Virus record (IMG/VR): IMGVR_UViG_3300045988_068671 | Location: 20,518 to 84,517 of that record | Reading direction: 5' to 3' (one strand) | From: a virus | DNA: 64,000 nt | Shown: piece by piece, positions 2,605-58,291 of the stretch | Layout: every line of letters starts with the position of its first letter | How positions within the stretch are numbered: position 1 is the first letter of the stretch | Made by a program: the position numbers and the translations under genes | Notes under the pieces: model-generated | What the model was told of the DNA's origin: nothing | The model's database searches: none | The model's input: the letters and a program-made list of their open reading frames with translations, nothing else

Positions 2605-2605
2605 A

Positions 2606-2818
2606 TCATTGTATTATTAAAGTTTCATCAACTACATCGTGATCTATTCCCTCTATGGAAGCAGTTAGGTCCTCAACAGCCTTCTACAATTCTGCTTTAG
2701 TAGCATAGTTCTTGAGAACTTCCTAGTCTACTCCAGAGCCTCCTCCTATACTTCCTCCAACAACTTTTACTGGTTTGGCAGAACTCTTAAACTGTCCTTC
2801 AATATAAATTGTTCCCAT
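2606..2818 (-). CDS. small hypothetical protein (about 70 aa) with one in-frame TAG
   Basis: ATG 2816-2818, TGA 2606-2608, hand translation. Confidence 0.35.
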
Positions 2819-2823
2819 ATTGT

Positions 2824-6278: not shown

Positions 6279-6433
6279 TATGATTCAATAATTGCTATTT
6301 AATAAATTCGTGATTATCTAATTTTACGGGTAGGTTAATAAAACAAATTAGATTCAAAATATCCTAATAATCTGGTCTATATCCCTTTCTAACCCTTTTA
6401 AGGAAATCCTCATACCTTTTAATAGCCTTTCTT

Positions 6434-7162
6434 TTAAGAGCATCCACAACCTATACGTTTATGTTCATGGTGATTGTTACAGAATCCACCGCAAGTACGG
6501 AACATCGCTAACAATCTTTCAGCTTCCATGAATTGTTTAAAGCCTATTAAATAATCTATAATGTTAAGTGTCATCCAGATAAAATCTCTTGCAAATATAT
6601 CTGCATCATGTTCTCTAGTTAAACACTTATTTAATAAAGAGTCAAAGAGTTTCTTACAGTAGTTAATATAACACTATTGCAGATTTCCTGTAAAGAACAC
6701 ATCTACCTTACATTTTTTGATAGTAGTCCCTTCTATATTTCTTTCAAGGATTTCTTTTACAGTACATTCCTCTAGCTCTCCATCTACTTCTTTATATAGT
6801 TTCTCTCCATCAGTTATATAGATAGTTTCATAATACTCCTTGTATTCATCAGATGAATTTTCATACCATTTCATATTAGGAAGAATTATGTGGTCTACTA
6901 CATAATATCCATCTTCTTTCACCTTAAATGTACAAGAGTCTAAATCCTCTGTATGGTCATTGAGAAGTACGTCTATCAAAGTAGCATCTCCTATACTAAC
7001 TTTTATGATAGTATTTAGGGTAGCACTTTCACTATACTTATAAGAATCATAGGAAGTTACTACCTCTAAATCTTCATCAATATACTATCCATATTCCTTT
7101 GAAAAGTCTTCAATAGTTATTTCCCCGTTAATCTGGGTATGTATATCAATACTAAATTCCAT
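6434..7162 (-). CDS. hypothetical structural protein (about 242 aa), Cys/His-rich C-terminus, TAG-recoded
   Basis: contains ORF piece 6674-6979, which ends at TAG; the true stop is TAA at 6434. Confidence 0.45.
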
Positions 7163-7172
7163 ATTATAATAA

Positions 7173-7907
7173 TTAAGACTCAGTAGTAGGCCATTGACCA
7201 TATTGAGCAGGAGTAGAAAATGGTTTCCACTTACCTTCTTGTCGTATACGTCTAGACATAAAAACTGAACTAAATGATAAACTAATATCTTGAGGATAGT
7301 CTGTCCATGTATATGACTAACCTTCAGGGGTCGGTGGTAGACTATTTAACTTACCAGCTGGTTTTCCATTCCAATAATAATTATAGTCATACGCTTTAGT
7401 TGGAGTAACAGTCGTTGTTTCATGTCCTTCTGAATCTACATATAGAGGATTTCCCTCCTCATCTGTTTTCTACTTATACTCAATAACTGGAGTTATTCCC
7501 TCAGTTCTAGTGTATATATTCTAGATAATAGTAGAAACATCGCTTGCTACAATCTCATAAATAGTAGTTCCCTGAGATTCGTCAGCCCCCTAGAAAGTAA
7601 ATTTAGTTCTTTTCCAGATATATGGATTCTCTTCAGTTGGAAGTTCAAAAGTATCAGTCCACTATTTAGTAGATAATTTTATCTCAGATTCTTCAGCAGT
7701 GTCAGCAGGTAAGTAATGAATCTTAATAATAATATTATTTACCGCTTCACTAGAACCAGAAAGGTCTGACACCTATTTAAATAGTTTCTTTAAATCTTCT
7801 TCCACATTTGATTTAGAACCAGAAGCATTACTAATAATTACTGAACCATCTGAAATAGGATAAATCTATTGCTAATCCTTATTATATACAATTGTTCCAG
7901 TTGCCAT
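7173..7907 (-). CDS. hypothetical structural protein (about 244 aa), TAG-recoded
   Basis: hand translation, ATG 7905-7907, TAA 7173-7175. Confidence 0.45.
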
Positions 7908-7908
7908 A

Positions 7909-10080
7909 TTAATGTATTTGTCTTATTTTGTCATTATATGGATTTCCATCATGAAGCTAAGCCAACTCTATTTCAGTTCTCTTTTCTTCTATATCCATTT
8001 GTCTATCTTTATATGTAGAATCAGATTGAGCTTTGAGCCAGTTAACCTTATATTCTAACTACATTTTCTGCTATTCTAATCCTAATCTCTACTCATCCAA
8101 ACTTTCTATCTTCTACTAAGCTTTCTATAGTTCTTGCTGTAACTGCTATGCCTATTGTGAAGTTTCTTCCAATTTTTCCTATAGCTACTATAGCTAATTG
8201 TTTTCTTCTTTACGAATCTATACTGCTTTCTTAACCTTGTATTTAAGGTCTGTAAGACTCTTAGCAGTTAGTGCTTCAAATATGATGTCAGGATCCATTT
8301 GCTGACTTTTAACAAACTCTGGAATAATAGCTTTAATAGTTTGTAAATCTTCCATTACTTCAGAGCTAGAAGTTATATGGATGTCATAATCAGTAACCGT
8401 AAAATACTCTGGAAGCGCTGTAAATATCTGCTAGTATTTATCTCCAAGTATAATAGTACCAGTCAATCCTTTCTTATATGTTATTTTAGCCTAGTTTAGA
8501 CTATCCAATAATATCTCACAAGTGATTAGGTCCATCTACTAGAAATAATGCTTGGTTACTATGTAAGAGTTAGTAACACCTTGCTTAATATTAGTTACAG
8601 CATCGTGAGTTTCTATTCCATTTAATCTTTCTCTAAATACTCCAGTTATAGATGATGTAGTTTGTTCTACTGATTGAATTGCTAATTCAATAGCCTATAC
8701 AGCCTAAGCTTTTAAGGTATCATCAAATCCATTGTATATCTAGTTAGGTGCTTGCGCTCCATCATTTCTTCCCTCCTAAGTGGAATCAATCCACATGATA
8801 CCACCCTTCTTGTATGCTAACCATTTCTACACTCTTTCTGGCCATTTTACGCCTAGGTTAGTAGGAAGCAATGACATATCCATGATTACTCCAGCAGTAC
8901 CGCTGTTAGCTATCAGGTTGTCCCTATAATAATTTAACAAGTCATATCTATCCTGTAGATGTGCACACTTTAATATCAGAGAGTACGGTTGTTGGGAACG
9001 ATTTAAGAAATATACCCCATTCACAGACAAAGAGCAGAAATTAGGATTATCTTTCGACCTCATAACAGTCTTGTCTAGACCTCTCAGAATATATATTTCT
9101 TCTCCAATTCTAATGGTATTGTATCTCTACATTACAAAATCGTCATCAGTTTCTATCCACTCTACATCATAAACAGGAATTAACTAAAATCTATGAGCAC
9201 TATATTCATTATCTGGATATCCAGGAATAGTTTCATGATTCTAATCTTCGTTTACTATAGTACAAGTGTCACCATAAACTCTTCTATAAACTGCAGCTGA
9301 ATCATCAGCTCTCCATTCATCTTTTAGTCTTTTCAAATCTTCTCTAGAGATTTCTTTTCCGTATTTAGCTAATATCTAGCTTTTACTCATCCATTTTCTA
9401 ACCACAACTCTATACGAATTTCTAACATATGGAGATTCTGGATTCCTATCTACGAAAGTATTTAAAGGATTCAGAACTTCTATTTCTATGTTAGTTCCAG
9501 AAGATGATGATTTTACTCTGAAAAATGTATAGCCAGTAATTAATAAATCTGTAAGTAACTATCGGAGTTTAGTTATTAAATCGGTTTCTCTAGACTGCAT
9601 GATATAATGAATAATATTCTATGCAGCTATCTCATATTGAGAAATAAAAGACTAATCAATGTCTTGAATAATTTTATCTAACTAAGTCTTCACGGCTTTA
9701 TCTGTAATATCTTTTCCGTCGATAAATTTCAGAATAGAATTACTTAAATGGTCTCTAAGAAATTTAACTATTCCTTTAGTTATTTCTAACTATTTTTCTC
9801 TGGTGATATTACTAATGGTATCTGAATCCTTACAAGAAATCTTCGGAAGGATAGGGGTTCCTAGATATTCCCCTACTAGAGCATCTACGTGCTTTTTTAG
9901 TAATGGTGTAAATTCTACAGAAGTAGGACTACCTATTCCAAAGTTTTCTTCCAGGTAACGAAACTATTCTGGGTCTCTCTTTCCGTTATAGTAATTATAG
10001 GCTTTCTATAATTCGTACTTATCATATACAAGCTCCGCAATAGCCTCGTTCGTCTTGTCTATCAGTTCTTTTTCTTTCAT
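7909..10080 (-). CDS. large virion protein, possibly portal (about 723 aa), TAG-recoded
   Basis: continuous frame with about 20 TAG; contains ORF piece 8827-9063; sits immediately downstream of the terminase. Confidence 0.45.
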
Positions 10081-10300
10081 AACATAAATTATGCTGTTCT
10101 GGAGGAAGTTTAGTTGCATTATAGTATTTAACTCTTTGTAACTTCCTACTTCTTAATTCTTCCTTTATAAATGGGAGAAATTCTTCATCAGGTAAATCAG
10201 CTATAATGACTAAAGGCATCTCTGACCTATCAAAGTTAAACGATACCTTATAACCAACTGGATCTAGGTTCTGAATTTCAAGCCCACCTACGTATTCCAT
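10022..10300 (-). CDS. small hypothetical protein overlapping the TerL 3' end
   Basis: ORF-track frame 10022-10483 trimmed to the internal Met. Confidence 0.25.
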   Translation of the reverse strand: MEYVGGLEIQNLDPVGYKVSFNFDRSEMPLVIIADLPDEEFLPFIKEELRSRKLQRVKYYNATKLPPEQHNLCYERKRTDRQDERGYCGACI

Positions 10301-12638
10301 TTTGTACAAGTCTCTCATATAACCTAGGATCACTTGTTTCAATTCTGTATGGGTCATCGTATTCATTTTTTTGTATGTTAGTTTCAAAAGTCTTAGAAGT
10401 TGGTATAACCCCAAATCTTTTGATTCCTCTCTCGTCGTAATAATAACCATAATCTTGGAATTGTTCAACTTCTTTTTCAACAAGCACTGGCTATCTTCCT
10501 GACAATTCCTAGTCTGCCAATTCTGTCATTCCTACAGCGGCTACAATATCGAATTTACCTTTATTCTCATCATTATATCCAGTAAATTGGTCTAACATTT
10601 CTTCAAACCATATAGTATGACAGAAATCCTCAATAAAGGCTGCTGTCAAATCAGTATGTTGTTCTATAATAGTTTTGGTAGCGGGTGTTCCGTACTATTT
10701 AGTAGTTCCATTCTTGACGTCTGTTAGAGTAGCTCTAGGTCTTTTCATAAAGTAGTTTAAACAACCCTTTTCTCTAGCCCAGGTAATCATACCTACACGG
10801 GTAGCTTCTATGTTTATTCTACAATTATAGTATCTAGCTAAACACATAGCTATTTTATAGGCTTCTCTAATGTCATTAGGTCTGTCTTTATACATAGCAA
10901 CATACTACGGTTCGTTTAGACCAAATGCTCTTCTTTTTATAGTTATACAGAAATCAGAAGGATCTCTTGTTTCTTTTGAAGTTTGACTAGCTCCTATATC
11001 AATACCGTCTATTCCTGCAACATATAAATCATGCATTTCTTTATACGCTGGAGATTCAAATTCTTCTCCCCTTTCCTCAGCTTCCTGTCTAAGTTTATCC
11101 ATCTATTCTTTATACAAATCAGACCATACAGGATGTTCAAGTATCTTTACTTTTCCGTTAATATTAGGAATCCATTTAAAACCATCTATATTATCCTAGG
11201 TGTGTTTATTGTTTTTATAGAAGTAGTCTATGTATCCAGATTCTGGTCTTGGTCCTATTTTCTTAAGTCTTATATTAGCTAATTGGTCCGCAATAAGAAT
11301 CTTGTTAAACTTGTTGACACCTTCAAGATTAAATGCTTCTTCTGCATTCCAACATCGTTCTGCACACTTCTTTAGATAGTCATCTGGAACCGCTAATAAG
11401 TTATCACGCTCTTCCTATAGATACTTCTTATATTCTACTGTATTACATACACCCCTATGGTCCATGTATTCTGAATTTAGGGACTAGACAAAATACGGAA
11501 TGAAGAATCCACTTTCAATAGTAGTTCCATCCTATGTATAATTATGTCTAAATGGAAGAACTTTGTAAGCTTTTGGATTGTAATATATCTTCTTAAGACC
11601 TGCTAATGGAGCACCCATATCACCACCAGTACCTCCAAATAACATTGTTCCACGAGGTTTACCCTGAACTTCACAAAGCTCTTGCCCCTGCACTACAGCA
11701 GTATCTAGTCCAGGCCAAGACCCTGCTTCATCATATATTAATAAGTCAACACGGTCTCCACGAATATTAGATGCCTTAGCTCCATTTATTCCAACTACTT
11801 CTGATTTAAATCCAACATCCTCAAACTGTCCGTTTACCTTAATCTGTTTACCAGACTTTTTTCTTAAGTCTTGGTCAATCAAACGTAGTTTGAAGAATCC
11901 CCCTCCTGTACAAGTATTCAAGAATGTTAAAGCATTATCAAACTTACTAAAAGTACCTTTAAGGAAGGTATCATTAAAACAAGTAATCATTACTCTGCTT
12001 CTTCTGATTACTGAATACATTCTTGCAGATAAGGATGCATTTATTTCAGAGAATCCAATAGAACGAGCTTTCATTAGAGCTGCGTGTTTATGCAGGACTC
12101 TAGCCATCTACAGATAATGAAAGAACATATAATGAGATGCGAAAAATATAGGAAAGTCACTACTTGTTCCTTCTCCAGATGCTTTGTTATCATCAATAAT
12201 AGGAAGCTAGTAGAAGTTTAGGAAGAAATAGTTATCTCCAGTAATTGTATAACCATTAACAGTCATTCCATATTTACATCTTCTATACTATTCCTTCCAA
12301 AACTCATTATATCTCTTACTATCTTTTAGATATGGACAATACTTTCCAGTTTTTCTATATACTTCTCTAGTCTCAGTAAACCAGTCTGGGTCGAAGTCAA
12401 GACCATGTGTCTCATCTATTGGTCTATATCCAGTTATTTCATAAGATAAAGTAGGGTCAAATACTTCTATCTTATCTCCTCTTTTTACATCCCAATAATC
12501 AGCATTTTTGTCCCTTTCTTCTCTTATCTTCTATACTAGTTCTCTAGCTTCTTTGGCATCCTCTTTTTGTTCTTTCTCTCTTACCTAATCTACTATATTC
12601 TAGATTTCTTCAGGTAATATTTTTTTCTTTCTAGGCAT
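10278..12638 (-). CDS. terL: terminase large subunit (about 786 aa) with about 12 in-frame TAG
   Basis: Walker-B-like GDRVDLLIYDEAGSWPG, C-terminal nuclease-like region; ORF pieces 11532-12107, 10905-11102, 10695-10895 and 10278-10487 are co-frame. Confidence 0.7.
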
Positions 12639-12640
12639 AA

Positions 12641-13207
12641 TTAAAAGTCTCCTGGGTCAAAGCCGTCTGTAGCTCCACCTCTTACAGTAGATTGTTCTGT
12701 AAGCTCTTTCTTAACCTGCTCTTCTAGTGTTACTAATTCTTCATGAACTTTATGAAGAGTAGCCATTTCTTTCATTACCTTTTCAGCTTGAAAGACGGGT
12801 TTGCCATTATTATCACGTTCATTTAAATCTACTATAGTATCAAAATAATCAATAAACTAGTCAGCTGCTCTTTTAGCTGCTTCTAGAAGTTTTATTGATT
12901 TGTTAGAATCCTACAATGCTCGGTATTTTCTACAGGCTTCCCTGAATAACGGGTCATTAAATTCGGATTCAGATAGTCCAGAGTCACTAATAGCTTCATC
13001 ATGTCTTTCATGTTCTGAATATTGGCTATAAGGACTCTTCCAATCAATAGCTAGATAAATGTAAGACAATTCTCTAGTTACTCGTTCCTTGTCAACAGAT
13101 TTATCTCTCTGTATCAAAGCCTTAAACTCTTTAACTAGAAGAAGCTCTGGTTCATTTATCTCTAACTATTTAGTTAAAGTGTTATAATTAAATACATTCA
13201 TACTCAT
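12641..13207 (-). CDS. possible terminase small subunit (188 aa), TAG-recoded
   Basis: position immediately upstream of terL; TAA overlaps the terL ATG; contains piece 12911-13117. Confidence 0.4.
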
Positions 13208-13237
13208 CAATCATTAACATTAACATCTTTAATCTTT

Positions 13238-14455
13238 TTATTTCATTTTAGAACCGCATTTACTTACTTTCATTTTAGAACCACAAGCATCCTTCTTAGC
13301 ATACTTTGTTCTATCTGGAACCCATTTTCCATTTTTGAAATTTCCCTTGTGTCCCCTGTTCGCCATAACCTCCTGGTCATTATATTTATTAATTGATACG
13401 GAATCTCTGGACGCTTCATCCTTTGCAGATTTCATATCCTTTTTATACTAAGCTCTTCCAGCTTTGAACTTGTCAACTTCATTAGCTTTCTTAGTAACCT
13501 TAGTTCCTTTCTATGCTTTTTGGCAAGCTTTGCAGATTCTTCCTCCCTGTTTAAAATAAACAAGTTCCTCTCCTTCTGGGCATACTCCTTTTAATTTTTT
13601 ATAGTATTCTAGTTTAGCTCCAAGTCTAGCCATAACTCCGCCTTGCATCTTCTACATAAATTCTTGATACTTGGCTTTGATTCCATCTTCTCCTAATTGC
13701 TGAGCATATTGTTCTAAATCCTACTCAGATTGTAATTGTATTCCTTGTGCTGCGGCATCCTGTATTAAGTATGCCATAAATGCTTTTTGTAATTCTTCCT
13801 AATTAGCCATTGCTCCTCCTTGTTGATATTTAACTCGTTGCTATCTAGCAGTTGCCTTTGGTATATGTTCCCAACTTCTCTAATTTTTGAGCTATTCTGG
13901 AGTTAGTTTCTGCCCATACATATTAGTTGTAGGCGGCTTTATCCATTGTTCTTGGATAGTTCCAGTATGCTCTCCAGTTTCCTAGTCTACTTGATTTTGG
14001 TACGTAGTAGCTCTTTTTCCGTCTTGACTATATGTAACATAGGGATTATTCATTACTGGAGTTCCTACCTCTACTGTTGCTTTCTTTCCATTAGCTAACT
14101 ATGTTCCATACACTCCTTTCCCCCATTTGAATTGAGTTAGTCCTCTCTTTCTGGCTTCTCTAAATGCTGCACCAAACCCCTAGACTCCTCTTAAGTCGTC
14201 GTTTTGAATTTGTTGCTAAGGTGCATTTATTTTCTTAGGAATAGTAGGAGTAGACGGCTTTAATCCTAATATAGGTTTTTGTTGTATAGCTGGCACAGCA
14301 CTTCTTTTCTTCTACTATGCAGTATTTCTAATAGAGTTCGGATTACTTTGCCAAGTCTAATGCAACTGTTGTAAAGTTCTTCCGTCTAACTCTGCGTCTC
14401 CATATATAGTCTTGATATGCTACATTAACTCTGGATCAAATTGTATTTTCGCCAT
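13238..14455 (-). CDS. Gln/Lys-rich hypothetical protein (about 405 aa), TAG-recoded
   Basis: C-terminal piece 13238-13435; continuous frame upstream with many TAG. Confidence 0.45.
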
Positions 14456-18638: not shown

Positions 18639-18655
18639 AACTATTAATTTTGGCG

Positions 18656-18727
18656 TTGCCCTACTAGGATTCGAACCCAGACTAAATGATTTAGAGTCAT
18701 CTGTGCTGACCATTACACCATAGGGCA
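18656..18727 (-). tRNA. amber suppressor tRNA, anticodon CUA (reads UAG); resembles the window's tRNA-Gln
   Basis: full cloverleaf: acceptor TGCCCTA/TAGGGCA, anticodon arm GATGA-CTCTAAA-TCATT, T-loop TTCGAAT; D-arm identical to tRNA-Gln at 33540. Confidence 0.8.
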
Positions 18728-20278: not shown

Positions 20279-21071
20279 CACGACTCTCTCGTGTATAAAT
20301 AAGTCAAACGTGCAACTCTAAGGTATTACGAGTATAAATAAAATGCCCATATGAACTCCATCATTGGAACATTGGTCAACGGAGAAATCAACAACAAAAC
20401 AAAAAAAAATCAAAACCGAGTTAACTTTTGTAGTAGTTTTAGTTTTTATGTCTGGCTGATAGGAAAGACTATCATTTCTTTTGAAAATTCAGTTTCACAA
20501 AAGAAAATATGGGCAAGTAAGGAGAAGAATGTTCCACAAACTCAAAGGCAGATTTTCCTACTTTTTCCAGTTTTCAAAAAATCGCCAGTAGGACGAGTTT
20601 TATAACTCATACTACAATGATTATTTACTCTAACATTAGCCTATAAAAAGGCAACAAAAAGCGGGGTTACGCAGATAGCCCAATATCCGAAAATAACTGC
20701 TATTAATGAAAATGAGAGTTCGCAAACTTATCTCATGAGTAAGGAGGATTGAGCTATAAGATTGGTCACTTATAGCAATATATGAAAGTACTGCTGACAT
20801 ACCAGTAGACCATGTATGTCATATTTTTATATGTTATGCAATTGTATTAGAAGTTGCCTGGTATAAGCCGCTAGATTAATAAGGCTAGCTGATAAGAGGA
20901 TACCTCATAAGGGTATATTTCCTACCTCGAACTCAGTCGCAAGAATATGGATTAGCTACCTATATTCTTAGTGAACGTTAGTAACGTAGCTATTTGATTT
21001 TCAGTATAGGAAACTGAGAATTAAGTAGTTGAATAACTCTCTATCTTATACTAGTTGCCAAGATAGAGTTT

Positions 21072-21141
21072 TCCCCATTAGTATAATGCATTGCGCCTTC
21101 CTCTAAAGAAGGAGATTCTGGTTCAAACCTGGAGTGGGGAA
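21072..21141 (+). tRNA. second amber suppressor-like tRNA, anticodon CUA; D-arm atypical
   Basis: perfect anticodon arm CCTTC-CTCTAAA-GAAGG, T-loop TTCAAAC, acceptor TCCCCAT/GTGGGGA. Confidence 0.55.
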
Positions 21142-21284
21142 CTTAGTATTTGAGGACTACAGCTACTTGTAGGCTCTATTTGCTGTTAAGGACTATAATG
21201 GGTACGCCCAGAGACTATGTAATTGTTGTGAAACAATTCAAAGGAGAGTGGCACAGGAAGGTCTTTTGATAGTGTTCATTTTTT

Positions 21285-21310
21285 ATCCCCACAGCGGTGG
21301 GGATATTTTT
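21285..21310 (+). terminator. rho-independent terminator ATCCCCAC-AGCG-GTGGGGAT plus T5
   Basis: seen in sequence. Confidence 0.5.
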
Positions 21311-21404
21311 AAAACTCAGCTTAGGAGAGTATAAAATACCATCTGATGAGACTAGGACGAAATATACTTTGTATATAATGGTATAACTAATTAAAACTAA
21401 GAAG

Positions 21405-21632
21405 ATGAAAAAGAGATATATTATTCCAGATGAATTGAGATATTCCTCAGCAAGTTGTGGTTTTGAATGTCATAACTTTGAAGAAGTTCTAGAATTTGCA
21501 AAATATTTCCATTCTATTAATTGTCCTTTTAAAGTTGATGGTTTATACATTGAGCCAGAAGGACAGCTAATGCCTCTAAAATATTTTTCTGAGCAACGAG
21601 ATATATGGGAATATTTAATGCTTGAGTTTTAG
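21405..21632 (+). CDS. hypothetical protein (75 aa; ends TAG)
   Basis: ORF track. Confidence 0.35.
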   Translation: MKKRYIIPDELRYSSASCGFECHNFEEVLEFAKYFHSINCPFKVDGLYIEPEGQLMPLKYFSEQRDIWEYLMLEF

Positions 21633-21956
21633 ACAATATACAGAACGCCTATCGCTGTAAAGACTGGCAAACGCTCACAAGTTACTGTGAGCAAAAGATT
21701 GCACATGAAGATTGAACGCAGAAACATGTGGGAACTAAAGAAGAGAGGTCAGGCAGTTCAAGGTAGTTCCGCTTAGTGTTTATCCTACTAAGTATCACTA
21801 CACGGTCAGGTTGGAAGACTGACATTTAAAAAACTCAATAACTTCCCAAGACATTGAGGGCACCAGTTTCTTTATTATAAAACGCGCGCAAACTATCTAA
21901 TAGATGTGAGTTGCTGCTCATAAAGTTTTAGGTGTAAAATGCAATACTAGTTATAT

Positions 21957-22292
21957 ATGAAAGAGATAAAAATTCTAGAAACAACAAAAGTTCTCTCTGA
22001 TAGAGAGGCTGATTTACTTTGTTCCATATTATGGTCTTTAGGTATTTATCCAGAGATTACAGCACTTGAAAGGAAAAATAGAAACATTACACTGGCGAGT
22101 ATTCTTCCAGAAATGCAACCTAGGACAGCTAGCCGTATTAGAGCTATGTTGGATGATCAAGTTTATATCTCTCTCAACATTTTCATGGAAAACTATTCTT
22201 GGCGTGATTTCATGAAAATGCCTGGTGTTGGAAGGAAATCGCTAAGTGATTTAAGATCAGTTTTGCAAAAGTACGGATACAAAACATTCTAA
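21957..22292 (+). CDS. hypothetical protein (111 aa)
   Basis: ORF track. Confidence 0.5.
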   Translation: MKEIKILETTKVLSDREADLLCSILWSLGIYPEITALERKNRNITLASILPEMQPRTASRIRAMLDDQVYISLNIFMENYSWRDFMKMPGVGRKSLSDLRSVLQKYGYKTF

Positions 22293-22421
22293 CTCGACTT
22301 CGCGAGTATAAATAGGCTTTAGGCGGAGAGCGGTAGGTAGAATAGTCTACCTACGTAGTGTAAAATACTTGCTATTTAGCAAACAAATGTGTAGTATTCT
22401 ATAAATAAAAATTAAATATTT

Positions 22422-23612
22422 ATGGAAGACAAAGTAAAAGAATTTAGAGACAAAAATCCTATACTAGACTTCCTAGCAGGATTTATTCCTGGAGTTGGAG
22501 AAGCATAGGACGCACATGATTTTATTCATGCCGCAAAAGATAAAGATTATATAAGTATGGGTTTAGCAGCTACAGGCTTAATTATTCCAGGAATCACAGG
22601 AGGGCAAATAAAGAAACTTTCAAACGTTTTAATAAAGAAAGGTTGGCGAGAAACGAAGGGAAGAATATTTGACCCATAGGGAGTTGAATACATTAGGAAT
22701 AAAGAAGGAAAACTTCAAAGCTTATCATCTTACAAACAGACTCAAGCCGTAGAAAAAAGAATTGAGGAAAATAAGTCTAAGGCTAAAGCCAGATCTAATC
22801 AACAAAAGAAAGTAATCAAAGAACATAACGAAGAAGCAGAAAAGTTTAGACTTCGAACGGGACTTGATTATTCTTTAGAAAATTGGCAATCACTAGCTTC
22901 AGGACATAAGATGTCACAAGAGGAAATAGACTTATTCACCAAAAAAGCTTTTCCCTAGTTTGTTCAAACTTATAATGAACTAATTAAGTCTGGTAAGCTG
23001 ATAAGATAGCCTAGTGGAAGATATACTGCTAATGGAAGGAAGAATCTAAGCAACATAGAAACTATGTATTATATCTAGGCAAACTCTCCTCAAGGTAAGA
23101 ATCTTTTATATAATGGTATCACAATGAGGTCTGGAATTAAGGATAAACATAGTTTTGAAACCGGAAAAAATAACCAGAATTATGAGAAATGGTTCAGTTC
23201 TAATCCCAGAGGAGCAAAAGCTTACGGAGACTTTGCAATCTGGGGACTACCAGTTAAACCTTCTATAATTAATCCCAACTGGGATGACTAGATTAGGCTT
23301 ATAAAAAGGCAGAAAGCTAATCCATCTTCTAATAATTGGGCAGGAGGTCCAATAGGTGCTTATTTAAGCAAGGATAGAGCACGTTCTGTAAATATGTCTG
23401 AAGGTGTTCTTACAGACGATTATGCAACATAGGTTCTTAATTCTGACCCTATAAAAGGAGTATTTACTATAGTAGGTCCAGATATTCCTGTAAAATCTGT
23501 ATTTGGAGGATCTGGAATGTATGATGTTAGTCCCAAAAAGCTATATAATCCATTCTTATCTCTTACCATGATGGGAATGCTAGGTTATAAACATTTAAAT
23601 AAAGATGAATAA
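22422..23612 (+). CDS. hypothetical protein (about 396 aa) with 7 in-frame TAG, in a region the ORF track shows as empty
   Basis: single frame ATG-to-TAA, length divisible by 3; TAG at 22506, 22677, 22956, 23007, 23076, 23289 and 23430. Confidence 0.55.
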
Positions 23613-37485: not shown

Positions 37486-37847
37486 TTATGGATAAATATA
37501 TTAATGGAAATTTAATAAAGAGGATACTAGTTTTTAAAACTAGAAAACATCCAGAATGGAAGCATAGAATAGCGGATACCAAATTTTTATTCTGGAAAAG
37601 GCATATTGATTATTGGTATCTTCTAGACCCATGCTTTGGGACTTACTCTGAGAAAGGGATGCTCGAATCAATTAGTAAGAGAACGTCCTTCTACAAGGAT
37701 GGAATAGTATACCAGAAGCCGCATATTATTCTAGAGTTCTCTGAGAGACATGATGAGTCTATCTATTTTGATAGTGATGAGGAAATGGAAGGCTGGCTTG
37801 AGTCTTTCAGGCAAGAATTTGGAAAACCATTTATGTATATAGAATAA
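37464..37847 (+). CDS. hypothetical protein (127 aa)
   Basis: ORF track. Confidence 0.45.
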   Translation: MSRILGLIMDKYINGNLIKRILVFKTRKHPEWKHRIADTKFLFWKRHIDYWYLLDPCFGTYSEKGMLESISKRTSFYKDGIVYQKPHIILEFSERHDESIYFDSDEEMEGWLESFRQEFGKPFMYIE

Positions 37848-37968
37848 TACCTTTATCCCAGTTTAGAGCTTAGCTCAAGTAGTGAAGAACAGTAGCTATT
37901 GGTTAAAACGAGGTGGAGTGCCAGACGAAAGACTGGAATTAACATAGTTTAACTTTGAATCTCCGACT

Positions 37969-38310
37969 ATGCGGAGTATCATTATGGCAGAATTGATTTT
38001 CTTACCTAACGGAAAATGCGATTTGAAATTTCATGCTAACATCAAAAACTTTAAAAGAGTTGAGATTGTGAAGCATAAGAAGAACTTCTTCAGGGTCTAT
38101 GTAGACCGCAACGATAGCGTTTATGACGTGAAACGGTGCGAAGTCATCACTTGGAAGACCATAGAGAGAGGGAAAAGAAAGGTGAATGTTCCTGACAAGG
38201 TTGACGAGGTACGTGATGTACATCTGTTTGACAAGACTAAGGGAAATCCGTTCAAGATTGCGGTTACTAAAATAATCGGCGAGATTGAGGCACAGGAATT
38301 ACTATCTTAA
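37969..38310 (+). CDS. hypothetical protein (113 aa)
   Basis: ORF track. Confidence 0.45.
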   Translation: MRSIIMAELIFLPNGKCDLKFHANIKNFKRVEIVKHKKNFFRVYVDRNDSVYDVKRCEVITWKTIERGKRKVNVPDKVDEVRDVHLFDKTKGNPFKIAVTKIIGEIEAQELLS

Positions 38311-38347
38311 GATAGCGTTTAGGAGAGTATCGTATAACTCTCCTTAT

Positions 38348-38422
38348 GCAGATGTGGTGTTAATGGTTTGAGCACGTCAGACTTCCAATCTGAAGGGGAG
38401 AGTTCGAGTCTCTCTATCTGCA
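38348..38422 (+). tRNA. tRNA-Gly(TCC)
   Basis: loop CTTCCAA. Confidence 0.85.
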
Positions 38423-38427
38423 CATTT

Positions 38428-38499
38428 GTAGGTATAGCACAACGGTTAGTGCATCGGCTTGCCATGCCGAGGATGTGAGTTCGATTCTCATTACCTACT
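38428..38499 (+). tRNA. tRNA-Gly(GCC)
   Basis: loop TTGCCAT. Confidence 0.85.
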
Positions 38500-38514
38500 C
38501 AAAATTTAAGTTTT

Positions 38515-38817
38515 ATGAAAATAAAGTGTACAGTATGTAATAAAGAATTTTATTATGGAGACCATAACTCTCCAATGTTTATTGATGAGGTTTGGAACAA
38601 GATAATAAATTACTTTAAGCTAACCAATTTTGAAAAAGAAGCTGCAAAGAAATTCTCCTCTTATTACAAAGGGGGAGGTAAAGATTATTATCCAGACCAC
38701 CATGTGTTTATCTGTAGCGAATGTGCGGAGAAGGCTCTAGGTAGGGAAATAACTGATAAGGATATTAATGATTCATTATTTAATATCCCATTTAGAGAGA
38801 AGTACTTTAAATCTTAA
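38515..38817 (+). CDS. zinc-ribbon protein (CTVC...CSEC)
   Basis: ORF track. Confidence 0.45.
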   Translation: MKIKCTVCNKEFYYGDHNSPMFIDEVWNKIINYFKLTNFEKEAAKKFSSYYKGGGKDYYPDHHVFICSECAEKALGREITDKDINDSLFNIPFREKYFKS

Positions 38818-38818
38818 T

Positions 38819-38903
38819 ATCCGTGTGGGTGAATGGTTTAGCCATCAGTCTGCAAAACTGAAAAGAGAAATCTTTAATGAGGGTTCGAATCCCTCCACGG
38901 ATT
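38819..38903 (+). tRNA. unusual tRNA: GCA (Cys) anticodon with a 17-nt class II-type variable arm
   Basis: acceptor ATCCGTG/CACGGAT, TCAGT-CTGCAAA-ACTGA, variable stem AAAGA-GAAA-TCTTT. Confidence 0.6.
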
Positions 38904-38923
38904 CTAATTTTAAATTTAAAAAT

Positions 38924-39559
38924 ATGGCATATATTTATTGCATTACAAATTTAATTAATAGCAAGCGATACGTAGGAAAAACTACTACTTCTATAGAAGA
39001 GCGCTGGAAGGAACATTGTTATGACTTTTAGAAAGAAAGATGCAACAAAAGACCTTTATATGATGCCATGAATAAGTATGGTGTTGAGAACTTTATGATA
39101 GAGGAATTGGAATATGTAGATAGTAACTCTGAATTATCTGAAAGAGAAATCTATTGGATAAAAGAGCTAGGAACTTATGGTTCTAATGGGTACAATGCCT
39201 CTAAAGGAGGAGATGGCACTATTCTATACAATCATAGTGAAATTGTAGAATTAGCTAGATTGGGATATACTAGTTCTTAGATACAAGAAAAAATAGGGTG
39301 CTGTAAAGACACTATTTACAAAGTTTTGAAGGCAAATAATATAAAAATTAGAAAAAGTAACGCAAAGTTAATTGCTTAGTATGACTTAGCAGGTAATTTT
39401 ATACAGGTATTCTTTGGTTCCAGAGAAGCTTAGGAATGGTTAATTAATAACGGAATTACTGACAATAAATCTGCATAGAGTCATATTATAGGATGCTGTA
39501 AGAATAAAACCAAATCATAGTATGGCTACATTTGGAAATATCTTCCAGAGCCTATTTAA
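38924..39559 (+). CDS. GIY-YIG homing endonuclease with about 6 in-frame TAG
   Basis: YIYCITNLINSKRYVGKT ... YNASKGG; ORF pieces 38768-39031 and 39068-39280 are co-frame across TAG. Confidence 0.6.
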
Positions 39560-39705
39560 TCTTTAAATCACTGTTTCGACATTTTCAGTCTAAATGCCGT
39601 GTCTGGAGACGTTACCAACCAGTCGTGCTATACGGTTAGAATAGTCCGTGCCTCACTGGTGATAGAGGCATCCCTGGGTAGCGGATGTAAAGTGGCTACC
39701 AATAT

Positions 39706-39784
39706 CGTGGAGTAGAGAAGTGGTCATCTCGCTAGGCTCATAACCTAGAAATCGTCATAAACGGTTCGAATCCTACCTCCGCAA
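39706..39784 (+). tRNA. tRNA-like element: CAT anticodon, C1xA72, aberrant T-stem (possible degenerate or initiator-like)
   Basis: D-arm GAGA/TCTC, CTAGG-CTCATAA-CCTAG, TTCGAAT. Confidence 0.3.
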
Positions 39785-40028
39785 CGAAACTCCTTTTGTG
39801 GCTCTGAATTAGATTAATTATTAACAATTTTAAACTTTGATGTTATGAAGAAAGTAATTAATGTTGTGAAGAAAGCTGCTAAGTGGTATTTTGAACAGAG
39901 TTCTAAGAGCTATACATGGTTAGTTTCTGGAACTATTCCGCCTCCTTATAGAGGTCTAGAGTAAAGATACTACTAAAAGGTAAGTACCAAAGGGGTACTT
40001 ATCTACACCCGTGGAGAAAATTAACTAT

Positions 40029-40100
40029 TGGGGTATAGTTCAAAGGTCAGAACTTTTGACTGTTAATCAAAGAATCATGGTTCGAGTCCATGTGCCCCAG
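40029..40100 (+). tRNA. tRNA-Asn(GTT)
   Basis: loop CTGTTAA. Confidence 0.85.
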
Positions 40101-40629
40101 CTATTGACCTTATATTAGATTATGCATCAGTGTGATTATTGTTGTTGGTACTACAGTGGAAATTGTGATTGTCCATATGTAATGAAGAAACAAGCGTGTG
40201 AAAATGCTTTGAAAACTAAAGAGAGAAATGAAAGACCTATTAGAAAAGTACAAAATGTTTCAAACTCCAAAACTAGCTAATGAGATTTCATGGAAAGACA
40301 TGAAGGAATTTAACTCTTATATGAAAGAAGTAGTTCGTGATTATAAGATTAAACAGGCTAAATCAATTTAGAGTGCTAGAAACGTAATAATATCCTGACC
40401 TGGCAAGGTAAAAATCCATTCGGGGTTTAAGTTGAAGCCAGTCCCTGCGGAATCATAAAGACCTTTTCTGATACGATAGTCGATGAACTGAGAGAGTAGT
40501 ATGGTTGCGGACTTATGCTACTAGAACATGATTCAAACAAAAAAAACTTATCTGGTGTTGTTAAGTTGTGGAATCTTAACAGTGGAAATTTATGGGTATG
40601 TCACCAATTAAAAAGAAAATCCCAAAAAT

Positions 40630-40702
40630 GGGCCGTTAGCTCAAATGGCTAGAGCGCTGGTTTTGCACACCGGAAGATAGGGTTCGAGTCCCTGCGTGTC
40701 CA
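40630..40702 (+). tRNA. tRNA-Ala(TGC)-like with G3:U70 but a partly mismatched acceptor
   Basis: loop TTTGCAC. Confidence 0.45.
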
Positions 40703-40910
40703 CAAACTTTATTTAAAAAATTATGAAAGTATATGTAGTTGTAGTAAATTATCACCAGCTAATGCTCCTCAAAATTATGAAACTGATTGCCAAATCTTCT
40801 TAGACAAGAAACAGGCAGAGAAGTATAAAGAGGCTAAGGAAAAAGAGTTTCCTATTAGATGGGGAGGAGAGTATAATCATTGTAAACTAATTAAAAAGCA
40901 TTTGTAATAT

Positions 40911-42591: not shown

Positions 42592-43154
42592 GGGCCTACT
42601 TGGATTTGACAGGCGATTACGAATTATAAGGACGTGTAGAGCGCAATCTCTTTAAACGAAGAAAACAAATAACTGCAGAAATTGCACCTGTAAGAATGGC
42701 AGCCTAAGCTGCTGACTTATTAATAGACAATATTAATCAAGTCGGGTTAATGGGGAGACCTAGAAACAGAAGAGGTTTGTATCTAAGTGTTATAACGAGA
42801 CCTTCAGGGAAGAATCATAGTACCTACAGGTTACAGTGAAGCTTAGATGCATTAACTTGAAAGCCAAAGGTTAGTAGAGCTGAAATCTCCACTGCCTATC
42901 TATGGGCTACAAATAGACGTTCTCCAACGTAAATGGAGTGGTGGAAGAATGACTTCTAGTCAGCCCCCAGTTTGGTAGTTTGTAAATTAGTTAGTAGGAG
43001 GACTGCTGGTTCACCTCTACTGTAAAGAATCCAGCTCTTCTAATAAAACTATCTAAATGCTAGAACTCACTAGCTGATGTAATAAAAATGAGACGCACGT
43101 TATCCTTGTAATAAGGGTTGTTTGGACACGGGTTCGACTCCCGTTAGGTCCACA
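42592..43154 (+). ncRNA. ssrA: tmRNA (ssrA-like); tag reading frame 42675-42707 (AEIAPVRMAA-stop)
   Basis: 5' GGGCCUACUUGGAUUUGACAGGCG and 3' GGACACGGGUUCGACUCCCGUUAGGUCCA closely match E. coli tmRNA termini; G3:U70. Confidence 0.7.
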
Positions 43155-43178
43155 TGACAGGGCTATAGTTCAACCGAT

Positions 43179-43400: not shown

Positions 43401-43952
43401 GTGAATCGAGAACAATCTCTTAAATTGTATTATGAGAATCCTAACCACTGTAAGGAATGTGGTAAGGTAATCGAAGTACTAGATAATCAGAGGGTCGCAG
43501 ATGTGAGGAAGAAACAGTTTTGTAGTCATTCGTGTGCTGCTTCTTACAATAATAGAGGTAGGATAAAGCACGATGAAAACAAGATATGTCCTAGATGTGG
43601 TAAACCTAAGCATAAAGATTCAGAAATGTGTCGTAGTTGCTGGGAAGAACTTAATGGAATTGGTAACAAAACATTAGGTTATTATACATCTGGGCAGAAG
43701 TACTTATCATCTAAATGTCAAGAAATAAGGACTAATGCTCGTAGAGTATTAGAAAGTTCCGAACGTGAGAAAGTATGTCAATATTGTCATAATCATGAAT
43801 TTGATGCAATACTTGAAGTACATCATCTTAAAGGAATATTAGAATTTGACGAAGACACTCTTATTAAGGAGATTAACAACGAGAATAATTTAGTATGGTT
43901 ATGTCCGAATCACCATATTATGTTAGAGAAGGGTTTAATTAGTCTGGAGTAA
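43401..43952 (+). CDS. HNH homing endonuclease
   Basis: HHLKG...NLVWLCPNHH. Confidence 0.7.
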   Translation: MNREQSLKLYYENPNHCKECGKVIEVLDNQRVADVRKKQFCSHSCAASYNNRGRIKHDENKICPRCGKPKHKDSEMCRSCWEELNGIGNKTLGYYTSGQKYLSSKCQEIRTNARRVLESSEREKVCQYCHNHEFDAILEVHHLKGILEFDEDTLIKEINNENNLVWLCPNHHIMLEKGLISLE

Positions 43953-44179: not shown

Positions 44180-44854
44180 ATGACTAGATTAGAAAAGTAT
44201 TTAGTAGCAACTGCTACTGAGATTATCGAAGCGGAAACAACTGTTTCTCGCTACTTTGTCATTGGAAACGTCAAAGTTAGAGTATCAGACCATTTAAGTA
44301 AAATGAGTGATGCAGACTTACAAGTGATTATTCCATTGAACGGAGGGACTAAGTATATAGTTACTGTTAAGGATAGTCCTGGAAAATTTCTTGTATGGAA
44401 TGCAACTCAAATAAAAGACTTTATTCCTTCATTGCAGATTATTAAGGGCTTGAAGGAAGGAGTGCAACTTAAGCCAAAACCTAAAGACTCTGCAGTTCAG
44501 AAGATTCAGCTAGCATTAAATAATAGTAATACCGATGGAGGTTCGTTAACGTTTGATGGTACTATTATTGAGTCTAGATTGAAAGAAAAGCAACTTACTT
44601 CCAAACAGCGGGAAGTTTTCAGGAGAACTAAATCTACTTGGGATATTTCTCAGATTGGGACATTACCCAGTATGATTAAAGTAGATTTAGGATTGTCAAA
44701 TGGTTCTGTAAACGAAGATGTGCAGATATTTCTAACTTGTACATCTTTAACCTACAAAGAAATTCTGAACATTTATAAAATAATAGTTGTTGATAACCGT
44801 ATGGTTCCAACTATTAAACTGTTGCAAGAAGCTTATAGCTTGATTGTGCAGTAG
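44180..44854 (+). CDS. hypothetical protein (224 aa); ends in TAG, which acts here as a stop just before a tRNA
   Basis: ORF track. Confidence 0.5.
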   Translation: MTRLEKYLVATATEIIEAETTVSRYFVIGNVKVRVSDHLSKMSDADLQVIIPLNGGTKYIVTVKDSPGKFLVWNATQIKDFIPSLQIIKGLKEGVQLKPKPKDSAVQKIQLALNNSNTDGGSLTFDGTIIESRLKEKQLTSKQREVFRRTKSTWDISQIGTLPSMIKVDLGLSNGSVNEDVQIFLTCTSLTYKEILNIYKIIVVDNRMVPTIKLLQEAYSLIVQ

Positions 44855-44857
44855 GAT

Positions 44858-44929
44858 AGCGCCATCATCTAATGGTTAGGATTCAGGCTTTTCACGCCTG
44901 CCATACGGGTTCGAATCCCGTTGGCGTTA
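44858..44929 (+). tRNA. tRNA-Glu(TTC)
   Basis: loop TTTTCAC. Confidence 0.85.
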
Positions 44930-56728: not shown

Positions 56729-58291
56729 ATGGAAATAATTAATGCAACAGATGGCTATAAATTGGGCCACCATAGAATGTATCCAGAAGGTACTGAACAA
56801 GTTTACAGTAATTGGACTCCTAGAAGTAACAAATACTTTCCAGAAGCCACTGAAGGTTCTGTAGTATTCGGAATCCAATATTTAATTAAGAAGTATCTGA
56901 TTGATGAATTTAATCAGAATTTCTTTGGATTGCCCAAAGAGAAAGCTGTAGAAATGTTTTATCGAAGAGTTCATAACTTCGTGGGAATTGAGTCCGTAGG
57001 ATATAAACATATTGAAGCCTTGTATGATTTAGGTTATCTTCCCATTCGCATTAAAGCGTTGCCAGAAGGTTCAATATGCCCTATTAGGGTTCCTATGATG
57101 ACTATTACTAATACAAAGTCAGAGTTCTTCTGGTTAACTAATTATTTAGAGACTTTGATTAGTTGTACTCTGTGGATGCCTTGCACCTCTGCTACTAGAG
57201 CAAGACTCTATAAGAATGAACTTAAAAGACACGCAGTACATACTGGATTTCCAGAAGATGTAAATCTGGATTTCTTGTGTCATGACTTCTCTATGAGAGG
57301 AATGGCTGGTTTAGAGGCCGCTATCATTTCTGGTATGGCACATATGACTTCGTTTGTTGGAAGTGAGACCATTCCAGCTATTGCTGCTCTAGAAGAATAT
57401 TATGGTGCAAATTCTGACAATGAATTAATTGCCGCCACTGTTCCAGCTACAGAACATTCTGTAATGTGTGCTGGTGGAGAAGAGGATGAACTTCAAACCT
57501 TTAAGCGATTAATTAACGAATTGTATCCATCTGGGTTCGTTTCTATAGTTTCTGATACTTGGGACTTCTGGAATGTTATTGAAAACTTCCTTCCCAAATT
57601 AAAGAAGGATATTATGGCTCGTGATGGACGTGTAGTTATTCGTCCAGATAGCGGAGACCCTGTTGATATTATTTGTGGTTTAAGAACTAATCCTCACTTC
57701 CATACTAGAATGAAAGAGGGTAAGTATTATTGTTGCTACGCTCCATTTAACGATGATGCTGAGTATGTAGAAGTTTCAGAAGGTCAATACTACGGTGCTT
57801 ATTATATGCTTGGTAAGATTTTTGGATGGAATACTACTTCTAAGGATTATCGCTATCCTAGTACGAAAATAGGTTTGTTGTATGGTGATTCTATCACTCT
57901 TGAACGTCAGAAGCAAATCTATATGCGACTTGAGAATGCTCATATGGCAGCTTGCAATCTTGTTCTAGGAGTAGGTTCATTTTCATATCAGTATGCAAGT
58001 AGAGATAGCTTAGGCTTTGCAATCAAAGCTACTGCTTGTGTAGTTAATGGAGAATTGAAAGAAATATTCAAACATCCTAAAACAGATGATGGAACTAAAA
58101 ATTCTCTTAAAGGTCTAATTGCTGTCTATCAGGACGTTAATGGCGTTTACTATGCTGAAGACCAGGTAACTCCTGAGGTAGAAAGCGGAGGCTGCTTAGA
58201 GACTGTGTTCGAAGATGGCGTCCTTAAAAAGGAGTACACTCTTAAAGAAATTAGACAGCGGATTAATGAAGGGCTTTATGGAAAGTTTTAA
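56729..58291 (+). CDS. nadV: nicotinamide phosphoribosyltransferase
   Basis: NAMPT-like N-terminus DGYKLGHHRMYPEGT and overall length. Confidence 0.75.
   Translation: MEIINATDGYKLGHHRMYPEGTEQVYSNWTPRSNKYFPEATEGSVVFGIQYLIKKYLIDEFNQNFFGLPKEKAVEMFYRRVHNFVGIESVGYKHIEALYDLGYLPIRIKALPEGSICPIRVPMMTITNTKSEFFWLTNYLETLISCTLWMPCTSATRARLYKNELKRHAVHTGFPEDVNLDFLCHDFSMRGMAGLEAAIISGMAHMTSFVGSETIPAIAALEEYYGANSDNELIAATVPATEHSVMCAGGEEDELQTFKRLINELYPSGFVSIVSDTWDFWNVIENFLPKLKKDIMARDGRVVIRPDSGDPVDIICGLRTNPHFHTRMKEGKYYCCYAPFNDDAEYVEVSEGQYYGAYYMLGKIFGWNTTSKDYRYPSTKIGLLYGDSITLERQKQIYMRLENAHMAACNLVLGVGSFSYQYASRDSLGFAIKATACVVNGELKEIFKHPKTDDGTKNSLKGLIAVYQDVNGVYYAEDQVTPEVESGGCLETVFEDGVLKKEYTLKEIRQRINEGLYGKF

Follow-up and report, generated by a model that had tools for sequence, protein, structure and literature searches.

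Genomic context and identity of the endonuclease gene

The DNA analyzed here is a stretch of 64,000 nucleotides (nt), referred to as the window, which covers positions 20,518-84,517 of IMG/VR record IMGVR_UViG_3300045988_068671 and contains, within an array of transfer RNA (tRNA) genes, a free-standing gene for a GIY-YIG homing endonuclease. The source is a crAss-related gut phage recoded from TAG to Gln. A strand switch is located near 20 kilobases (kb) in the window. The minus-strand block at 787-14455 holds long open reading frames (ORFs) with 2-34 in-frame TAGs each, among them the portal, large terminase (TerL), and tail ORFs of the late block, which contain 6-34 TAGs each. The terminase is 26-29% identical to its counterparts in named crAss-like phages, and identity rises to 42-46% for unannotated phage contigs from the human gut; the contigs holding the same endonuclease gene are 143-185 kb in length. 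Among the plus-strand ORFs readable in the standard code, 38 stop at TAA, 13 at TGA, and 3 at TAG. The window has 27 tRNA genes, 25 of them on the plus strand, in addition to a transfer-messenger RNA (tmRNA). The same layout, namely early genes compatible with the standard code, recoded late genes, and suppressor tRNAs carried by the phage itself, is found in TAG-recoded crAss-like phages.

The endonuclease ORF, whose limits and neighbors are listed in Table 1, begins with an ATG at 38924 and ends with a TAA at 39557-39559. Six in-frame TAGs are located at codons 36, 119, 152, 170, 185, and 199 (window positions 39029, 39278, 39377, 39431, 39476, and 39518), and no in-frame TGA or TAA precedes the terminal stop in the 211 codons. 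The guanine-cytosine (GC) content of the gene is 31.3%, compared with 35.6% for the window. Length is not decisive for such an ORF, because TAA- and TGA-free runs in mononucleotide shuffles of the window have a mean of 178 codons and a maximum of 283, in excess of 211; the reality of the gene is settled by homology, and it was on that ground, not on length, that a chance ORF was ruled out. Homologs were searched for with TAG masked as X, and the DNA-level work was then carried out on 80 related loci, designated below by L numbers. The protein database provided 985 homologs, many of exactly 211 amino acids (aa). The Pfam GIY-YIG profile PF01541 is matched with E=6e-13 over model positions 1-78 of 78, and TIGR01453, “group I intron endonuclease”, is matched with 76 bits against a cutoff of 56. 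PHROG 314, “homing endonuclease”, is matched with E=4e-31 along residues 1-206, an alignment that therefore spans all six TAGs.

These results agree well with the first-pass annotation of the locus, in which a GIY-YIG homing endonuclease had been read from its N-terminus through at least six in-frame TAGs to a TAA, directly after a tRNA. The N-terminal stretches MAYIYCITNL...YVGKT and ...GYNASKGG are both present in the translation, the TAGs number exactly six at the exact coordinates given above, and the tRNA with anticodon GCA lies immediately upstream. The identity is carried by the Pfam, PHROG, and TIGR01453 matches together with those to I-TevI in sequence and fold, and the frame of the C-terminal half is coherent, since homology runs to residue 206 across the TAGs.

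Domain organization of the protein

Sequence profiles and a predicted structure were combined for analysis of the protein. At the N-terminus, the GIY motif takes the form IYCI, containing Y5, and the YIG motif the form YVG, containing Y16. The catalytic residues of I-TevI are R27, H31, E75, and N90. In the window protein Y5, Y16, R27, H31, E75, and N91 are all present, and they are invariant across the family; for R27, H31, E75, and N91 this holds across 20 as well as across 40 homologs. Compared with the I-TevI structures 1mk0/1ln0 of the PDB, the catalytic domain is matched by sequence with E=1e-11 at 34% identity. The structure was predicted with AlphaFold2 (AF2) from P0001, the copy of this gene in a near-identical contig, which differs at two residues and carries a spurious N-terminal extension of 52 residues running over the tRNA. 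A Foldseek comparison of the N-terminal model domain with 1mk0 gave a template modeling (TM) score of 0.83 and a root-mean-square deviation of 2.0 Å, with E=2e-5.

Beyond the catalytic domain, three helices are placed by the AF2 model at residues ~104-138. The helix-turn-helix (HTH) profiles HTH_23, HTH_28, and HTH_7 match the window protein weakly in this respect, and HTH_23 is found in 13 of 20 family members, with a best E of 1.7e-6. The C-terminal module adopts a beta-beta-alpha-alpha-beta arrangement in the model, with a predicted local distance difference test (pLDDT) value of about 96; it ends with a conserved YGYxWKY motif and displays a weak fold match to the DNA-binding region of I-HmuI. 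The C-terminal half was inspected for NUMOD domains, as the first-pass annotation had advised: six of 20 family members match NUMOD1 (Pfam PF07453) at E<=0.01 (best 4e-5), and the match is below threshold for the window protein, which scores 16.6 bits against a gathering cutoff of 22.8. Judged by these profiles and the predicted model, the protein is a complete GIY-YIG endonuclease in which a catalytic domain is followed by HTH and NUMOD1-like modules.

Reading of TAG and codon usage

The meaning of TAG in the gene can be read from two invariant Gln columns of the family alignment. At column 152, TAG is present in the window, L009, and L010, while CAA or CAG is present in the other close homologs. 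At column 161, the window has CAG, and TAG is present in L007, L008, L010, and L012. The other four TAG positions of the window copy fall in variable columns and therefore add no information on the meaning of the codon. Over the homolog alignment, Gln is enriched 3.5-fold opposite TAG; the other frequent residues there are Glu and Lys, each of which is one mutation from TAG. Furthermore, published metaproteomics has confirmed TAG as Gln in other crAss-like phages (PMC9523058). Two tRNAs with the CUA anticodon are present in the window, one on each strand (Table 1). From the alignment, it is concluded that TAG reads as Gln in the endonuclease gene, and its use as a sense codon, as originally proposed, is thereby sustained.

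Codon usage in the gene differs sharply from that in its neighbors. Of its eight Gln codons, six are TAG; the 12 longest plus-strand ORFs without TAG have 132 Gln codons, all of them CAA or CAG (Fisher p=3e-9), whereas the late block, with TAG in 123 of 242 Gln codons (51%), does not differ from the gene (p=0.28). The plus strand had been described as otherwise written in the standard code. This holds for its long ORFs, which avoid TAG, but not for two further ORFs, at 26263-26724 and 22422-23612, which use it three and seven times. Automatic counts of TAG in neighboring ORFs across the related loci are noisy, with out-of-frame ORFs and other endonuclease paralogs included, and were used qualitatively.

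Close homologs and paralogs in related large contigs hold 1-6 TAGs each, mostly at differing positions, although TAG at column 36 is common to five loci. Many of the more distant homologs are without TAG, and the distant L015, L017, and L020 carry 5-6. In L024 (10001-10636), a contig recoded at TGA, all four Trp codons of the homolog are TGA, at conserved Trp columns and with no TGG, and most neighboring ORFs are without TGA. The TGA-bearing copy in L024 and the TAG-bearing copies elsewhere therefore indicate that the family adopts the code of the resident phage under two different reassignments. The long residence in recoded genomes suggested by the first-pass annotation is upheld by this distribution.

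As a separate observation, two of the three in-frame TAGs in the L030 copy (10001-10651) fall on Tyr columns. One occupies Y16 of the YIG motif, which is Tyr in all 26 other sequences, and the other the Y200 column, which is Tyr in 19 of the 26. Either this copy has been inactivated or its source is a phage in which TAG means Tyr.

Mobility among related genomes

The locus was compared with its counterparts in related phages. L004 and L007 share with the window the Gly-Gly...Met tRNA backbone but lack the endonuclease, and a different tRNA-like sequence stands in place of the segment comprising a Cys-rich ORF of 100 aa (ORF100), the long-arm tRNA-Cys, and the endonuclease. In L001 and L082, by comparison, the endonuclease is identical to that of the window at 635-636 of 636 positions and ORF100 at 302-303 of 303, while ORFs approximately 1 kb upstream are only 77-83% identical. 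The endonuclease, ORF100, and the adjacent tRNAs taken together match L001/L082 at 99.8-100% identity, and in L001 the spacer downstream reaches 95%. The 636-nt sequence stands at 635-636/636 identity in four contigs besides that of the window, all with diverged flanks. An island of ~100% identity within diverged flanks is the footprint expected from recent transfer with co-conversion.

Moreover, the number and position of copies change between close relatives. L002 and MT837398 (= L082), genomes that are 97-98% identical to the window, carry a 50%-identical paralog with three TAGs immediately after tRNA-Met, and L001 carries a 57%-identical paralog with four TAGs directly after the tmRNA. Both of these 3'-end sites are empty in the window, and the paralogs at them are present or absent among genomes 90-98% identical. 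Recombination between copies can also be observed. The L013 gene (10001-10636) is a chimera in which the first ~58 codons are identical to the window gene and the remainder to the tRNA-Met paralog; the C-terminal part of the first gene, the spacer, and tRNA-Met have been deleted, with the deletion junction in the T-loop. A second chimera with another breakpoint is P0017 (265 aa). When 17 loci were scanned for tRNAs, the start of the homolog was mostly found 16-240 nt past a tRNA, whose identity was Cys, Met, Leu, Pro, or Gln, the exceptions being L015 and L022. Taken together, the comparative data indicate that the gene is mobile at present, as its earlier description as a selfish element had implied, and show that the tRNA arrays of large gut phages owe much of their structural variation to this family.

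The GCA tRNA beside the gene has a discriminator U and a long variable arm resembling that of Ser and Leu tRNAs, and is missing from relatives without the endonuclease at the same site. In L008, an uncalled Cys-like tRNA at ~9900-9990 with the identical anticodon arm CAGTCTGCAAAACTG is located directly upstream of the endonuclease copy, and the copy in L020 also follows a tRNA-Cys. The Cys tRNA and the endonuclease may travel together.

Sequence features of the insertions

Five of 23 non-redundant copies carry, 0-3 nt past the stop codon of the endonuclease, a repeat that matches the 3' end of the upstream tRNA or tmRNA at 13-14 of 14 positions. The repeat starts at the TCC of the T-loop, and the upstream tRNA or tmRNA is left intact. 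The same level of repetition is reached by five of 506 mismatched locus pairs. One of the five copies is the distant, TAG-free L021. Such a repeat resembles a target-site duplication, an uncommon feature for a homing endonuclease. Since it spans the region from the T-arm motif to the tRNA 3' end, it would fit, as indirect evidence, a target resembling that of SegB. On the plus strand of the window, the GGTTCRANTCC motif occurs 20 times.

Many copies are also preceded by the leader motif CCTCCACGTGGTG, which includes the palindrome CCACGTGG and is located a few nt past the end of the tRNA or tmRNA, about 55-70 nt before the endonuclease ATG. Limits of the bounded insertions and positions of the leader are given in Table 1.

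Comparison with known systems

SegB is the GIY-YIG endonuclease of the T4 tRNA cluster, recognizing GGTTCRANTCC and cutting the 3' end of tRNA genes (PMC2330249; PMC13096335). In excess it cuts many tRNA genes, and its expression is believed to be under tight restraint (PMC2330249; PMC13096335), through an RNA hairpin and transcript processing (PMC2330249). Its homologs are widely tied to tRNA genes, and it amplifies tRNA and anti-defense loci (PMC13096335). In annotated phage genomes, the window protein matches genes labeled homing endonuclease or SegB in many phages. A tblastn comparison with Tequatrovirus segB gave 28% identity over residues 3-204 with E=5e-5, and hhalign gave a probability of 97% with E=3.5e-11, the confident part being the catalytic domain and the DNA-binding half being weak. 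By sequence comparison, the window protein is detectably homologous to T4 SegB as a distant, near-full-length homolog with a weakly aligned DNA-binding half. The two are alike in catalytic family and size (211 aa in the window, 221 aa for SegB), in being encoded by a free-standing gene within a phage tRNA array, in being missing from otherwise homologous arrays of relatives where the flanking markers are replaced, and in belonging to a wider family that adjoins the 3' ends of tRNAs of many isotypes. They differ in sequence, with only ~28% identity, in host genome, which here is a crAss-related Bacteroidota-type gut phage and not a T-even phage, and in code, the window gene being written in code 15 with six TAGs.

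A precedent for recoding exists in the TGA-recoded Agate phages. Borges et al. described a “group I intron endonuclease” in an early gene that prefers TGA, showed statistically that an endonuclease family favors the recoded codon, and proposed that in-frame stops delay the recoded intron endonuclease until late infection (bioRxiv 10.1101/2021.08.26.457843). Like that enzyme, the window gene is of the homing type and rich in a reassigned stop amid early standard-code genes, its protein passes the like-named model TIGR01453, and a TGA-recoded member of its family exists in L024. The codon concerned here is instead TAG for Gln, and the gene stands free in a tRNA array, not in an intron inside a protein gene.

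I-TevI, from the td intron of T4, shares with the window protein the catalytic domain by sequence and fold, including all catalytic residues, and a modular organization in which a catalytic domain is joined by a linker to DNA-binding modules. Translation of I-TevI is delayed to late infection (PMC2330249). The window gene differs in having no intron and in its C-terminal modules, which are HTH and NUMOD1-like; the I-TevI DNA-binding domain was not among the Foldseek matches of the window-family model. The delay in I-TevI arises from a sequestered ribosome-binding site, whereas here it would arise from codon reassignment.

Epsilon and zeta crAss-like phages are described in passages of PMC12386605 as having large genomes, a tRNA block, suppressor tRNAs, and stop-recoded structural genes, and the same passages report that endonuclease genes differ between ~91% identical zeta genomes. 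This polymorphism between close relatives, as far as those passages describe it, matches that of the window family, although the retrieved passages are silent on recoded codons in the endonucleases and on any tie to tRNA 3' ends, and the term GIY-YIG was not returned by a term search of that paper. Within the searchable library, a literature search combining crAss-like phages, GIY-YIG, genetic code, and tRNA returned no paper uniting these points.

Proposed mechanism and alternative explanations

We consider it likely that the locus encodes a functional, currently mobile, free-standing GIY-YIG endonuclease of the SegB/I-TevI type in the tRNA array of a recoded gut phage, with production that is probably timed by the suppressor. 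By analogy with SegB, the enzyme would probably recognize, within tRNA-like genes of phages that lack it, the conserved T-arm (GGTTCRANTCC) together with the 3'-end region. The cut site would then be repaired by recombination, with the endonuclease gene and its flanking markers copied in. Since the first TAG is codon 36, a ribosome reading the standard code makes only a fragment of 35 residues, and in vivo the full-length enzyme would need the CUA-anticodon suppressor tRNA of the phage. Given this need, production is probably limited to the phase in which TAG is read as Gln, and would coincide with translation of the portal, terminase, and tail genes. Suppressor-dependent, late production is probable on this reasoning, as the first-pass annotation had held of late expression, and has published precedent in the Agate and I-TevI cases. 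Such restraint would be useful because the resident genome holds 20 SegB-type motifs and SegB in excess cuts many tRNA genes.

Several points weigh against this interpretation. The second CUA tRNA heads the plus-strand block, so that suppression could start early, which weakens the term “late”. The DNA-binding half resembles SegB weakly, and the specificity for the target may therefore not be the same. In more distant homologs, the residues opposite four of the six TAGs are mostly other than Gln (K/E/A/S). At the window copy itself, the tRNA 3'-end repeat scores only 7/14, and the leader CCTCCACGTGGTG gives no match at <=2 mismatches. The lack of both features, together with the identity island, suggests that this copy arrived by allelic homing with its flanks, not by fresh ectopic insertion. 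Finally, the share of TAG is the same as in late genes, so that passive drift accounts for the observations no less well than selection for a lock does.

The last point leads to the strongest alternative, in which the endonuclease is functional and mobile and its TAGs are merely tolerated, having arisen by AT-biased drift from CAG or CAA to TAG, since translation ahead of suppressor activity is not under selection; no role in timing would follow. Such neutral tolerance is a real possibility, which we hold at somewhat less than even. It accounts for the TAG share being no different from that of late genes, for positions that vary between homologs as drift predicts, and for the AT-rich composition of the gene, and it is compatible with the lack of TAG in another nuclease gene of the array, the HNH ORF at 43626-43952. 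It fits less well with the presence of TAGs in every examined copy from TAG-recoded relatives, with the use of TGA for 4/4 Trp in the TGA-recoded relative, and with the statistical preference for the recoded codon reported by Borges et al.; a nuclease to which its resident genome offers about 20 potential sites would, moreover, need restraint.

A bolder extension of suppressor-timed production is that codon reassignment serves as a safety lock for a tRNA-cutting nuclease in an array of 27 tRNAs, and that the nuclease family and the tRNA toolkit of the code switch co-evolve. The family would then reshuffle, duplicate, delete, and transfer tRNA genes between recoded phages, potentially including suppressor tRNAs, and its insertions at tRNA and tmRNA 3' ends would leave the 13-16 nt target repeat. 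The endonuclease would rely on the suppressor and in turn help to spread the tRNA toolkit that enables recoding. This proposal is speculative, and we regard it as doubtful.

It is also rather unlikely, and somewhat more so, that the nuclease has been domesticated, that is, kept for a benefit to the phage such as amplification or reshuffling of the tRNA array against tRNA-targeting defenses, or exclusion of co-infecting relatives. The amplification of tRNA and anti-defense loci by SegB points in this direction, as do the loss of tRNA-Met in L013, a recombinant of two tandem paralogs, and the variable array content among close relatives. Copy number and position that vary among 97-98% identical genomes and a fresh identity island are, however, both typical of a selfish element. 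The selfish and domesticated roles are not mutually exclusive.

The remaining candidates were rejected. Residence of the ORF within a self-splicing group I intron, which is the arrangement of I-TevI and of the Agate example, is most improbable: TIGR01453 passes its cutoff and the 146 nt that follow the ORF appear structured, with conservation in L004, but complete tRNA genes with no split gene stand on both sides, and the downstream element is also present in L004, which has no endonuclease, and is therefore not tied to the ORF. No group I intron was detected in a gathering-level Rfam scan of the whole window or in a local scan of 38300-40200 at E<=1, and in the latter no non-tRNA family appeared apart from antisense-tRNA artifacts. 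A decaying pseudogene in which TAGs are true nonsense mutations is equally hard to credit; homing endonuclease genes often degenerate once fixed, and relatives include the frameshifted L027 as well as L010 and L021 with a single in-frame TGA, but here all six interruptions are TAG with no TAA, TGA, or frameshift, the catalytic residues are intact, TAG stands at invariant Gln columns, diverged genomes hold an identical copy, and TAG is demonstrably a sense codon in the portal, terminase, and tail genes of this genome.

If the timed-production interpretation is correct, the gene represents a natural case of a selfish gene readable only via the code switch of the phage itself. Amid neighbors written in the standard code, a single endonuclease family stands as a recoded island under both TAG to Gln and TGA to Trp, and this pattern supports the idea of stop reassignment as a translational timer for dangerous proteins beyond those of lysis and structure. 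New elements here are the TAG-recoded, free-standing, SegB-like example in a crAss-related tRNA array, the recoding of a single family under both TAG and TGA reassignment, and the tRNA 3'-end repeat at paralog insertions. Since recoded, delayed endonucleases and the tie between SegB and tRNA genes have both been published, the finding extends current understanding and does not overturn it. The system is tractable for testing: the enzyme is small, its target can be predicted, and the suppressor is known. It is also relevant to annotation, because gene callers using the standard code shatter such genes.

Table 1. Positions of the endonuclease gene, its predicted modules, associated RNA genes, and comparable copies in related loci (window coordinates unless a locus is named)
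Feature	Position	Strand	Remarks
Free-standing GIY-YIG homing endonuclease gene	38924..39559	+	211 sense codons; profile matches and homologs
GIY-YIG catalytic domain, residues 1-92	38924..39199	+	PF01541; I-TevI sequence and fold match
Three-helix HTH-like DNA-binding module, residues ~104-138	39233..39337	+	Weak HTH matches; AF2 model
NUMOD1/IENR1-like module, residues ~148-208	39365..39547	+	Sub-threshold NUMOD1; family matches; AF2
ORF100, Cys-rich, 100 aa, no assigned function	38515..38817	+	Within the present/absent segment and the ~100%-identity island
tRNA, GCA (Cys) anticodon, 86 nt, unusually long variable arm	38819..38904	+	Ends 19 nt before the endonuclease ATG
tRNA-Met (CAT)	39706..39785	+	3' end unoccupied in window
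tmRNA	42592..43155	+	3' end unoccupied in window
tRNA, CUA anticodon (TAG reader)	18655..18727	-	Closest to phage tRNA-Gln(UUG) among window tRNAs
Second tRNA, CUA anticodon	21072..21142	+	Atypical: 71 nt, Rfam 32.6 bits; flanked by ribozyme-associated RNAs
RAGATH-14	20849-21042	+	183 bits
RAGATH-1 hammerhead	21313-21382	+	
Pistol ribozyme	22292-22360	+	
Copies with bounded insertions	L082 2863-3600; L002 10862-11600; L001 14883-15610; L007/L012 9914-10650; L009 3800-4525; L021		
Leader CCTCCACGTGGTG sites	L001 14901; L002 10878; L007 9931; L009 3818; L012 2025, 9931; L020 357; L027 9936; L082 2880		

Further features of the window

Other nucleases and TAG-using ORFs are present on the plus strand. 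The gene at 26263-26724, a second recoded nuclease gene of the tRNA array, encodes a PD-(D/E)XK endonuclease (PF11645, E=2e-23), starts 18 nt past tRNA-Lys, and has TAG for all three of its Gln codons; in L001 only 54 nt separate tRNA-Lys from tRNA-Pro, and the gene is therefore missing from that locus. The HNH ORF mentioned above (PF13391) sits between tRNA-Ile and tRNA-Asp on the plus strand. All three of its Gln codons are CAR, and recoding is therefore not universal among nucleases of the array. The ORF at 22422-23612 encodes 396 aa with its seven in-frame TAGs and directly follows the pistol ribozyme, being the third TAG user on this mostly TAG-free strand; Pfam and PHROG searches gave no match to it. 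The ribozyme-associated RNAs at 20849-22360 (plus strand) surround the plus-strand CUA tRNA, and this cluster may be linked to processing of the suppressor tRNA transcript. At 44180-44872 (plus strand), an ORF runs for 224 codons to a TAG, with a TAA six codons further on, an end that looks like a dual-code-compatible stop, with TAG backed up by TAA, as in zeta crAss-like phages.

Among the structured RNAs, the tmRNA is matched by Rfam with 68.8 bits over the full model and spans 564 nt; ARAGORN made no tmRNA call in the window, but called tmRNAs in L012 and L024. An additional tRNA at 40630-40702 (plus strand) was detected by Rfam with 39.5 bits, is not among the ARAGORN calls, and overlaps a spurious-looking ORF at 40515-40907. 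A structured-looking element of ~115 nt is located at 39590-39705 (plus strand), immediately 5' of tRNA-Met, with no match in Rfam; it is also present in the endonuclease-less L004 (14067-14202) and in part in L007. A scan of 37800-40200 for sigma-70 promoters and terminators gave marginal, weak matches above shuffles, the sigma-70 model being uninformative for a Bacteroidota-type host.

Two auxiliary genes were assigned on the plus strand. Within the tRNA array, a small ORF at 34577-34984 matches the cyclic-phosphodiesterase domain of tRNA ligase (PF08302, E=5e-8), and the gene at 56729-58291 encodes a nicotinamide phosphoribosyltransferase (PHROG 448, E=1e-181).

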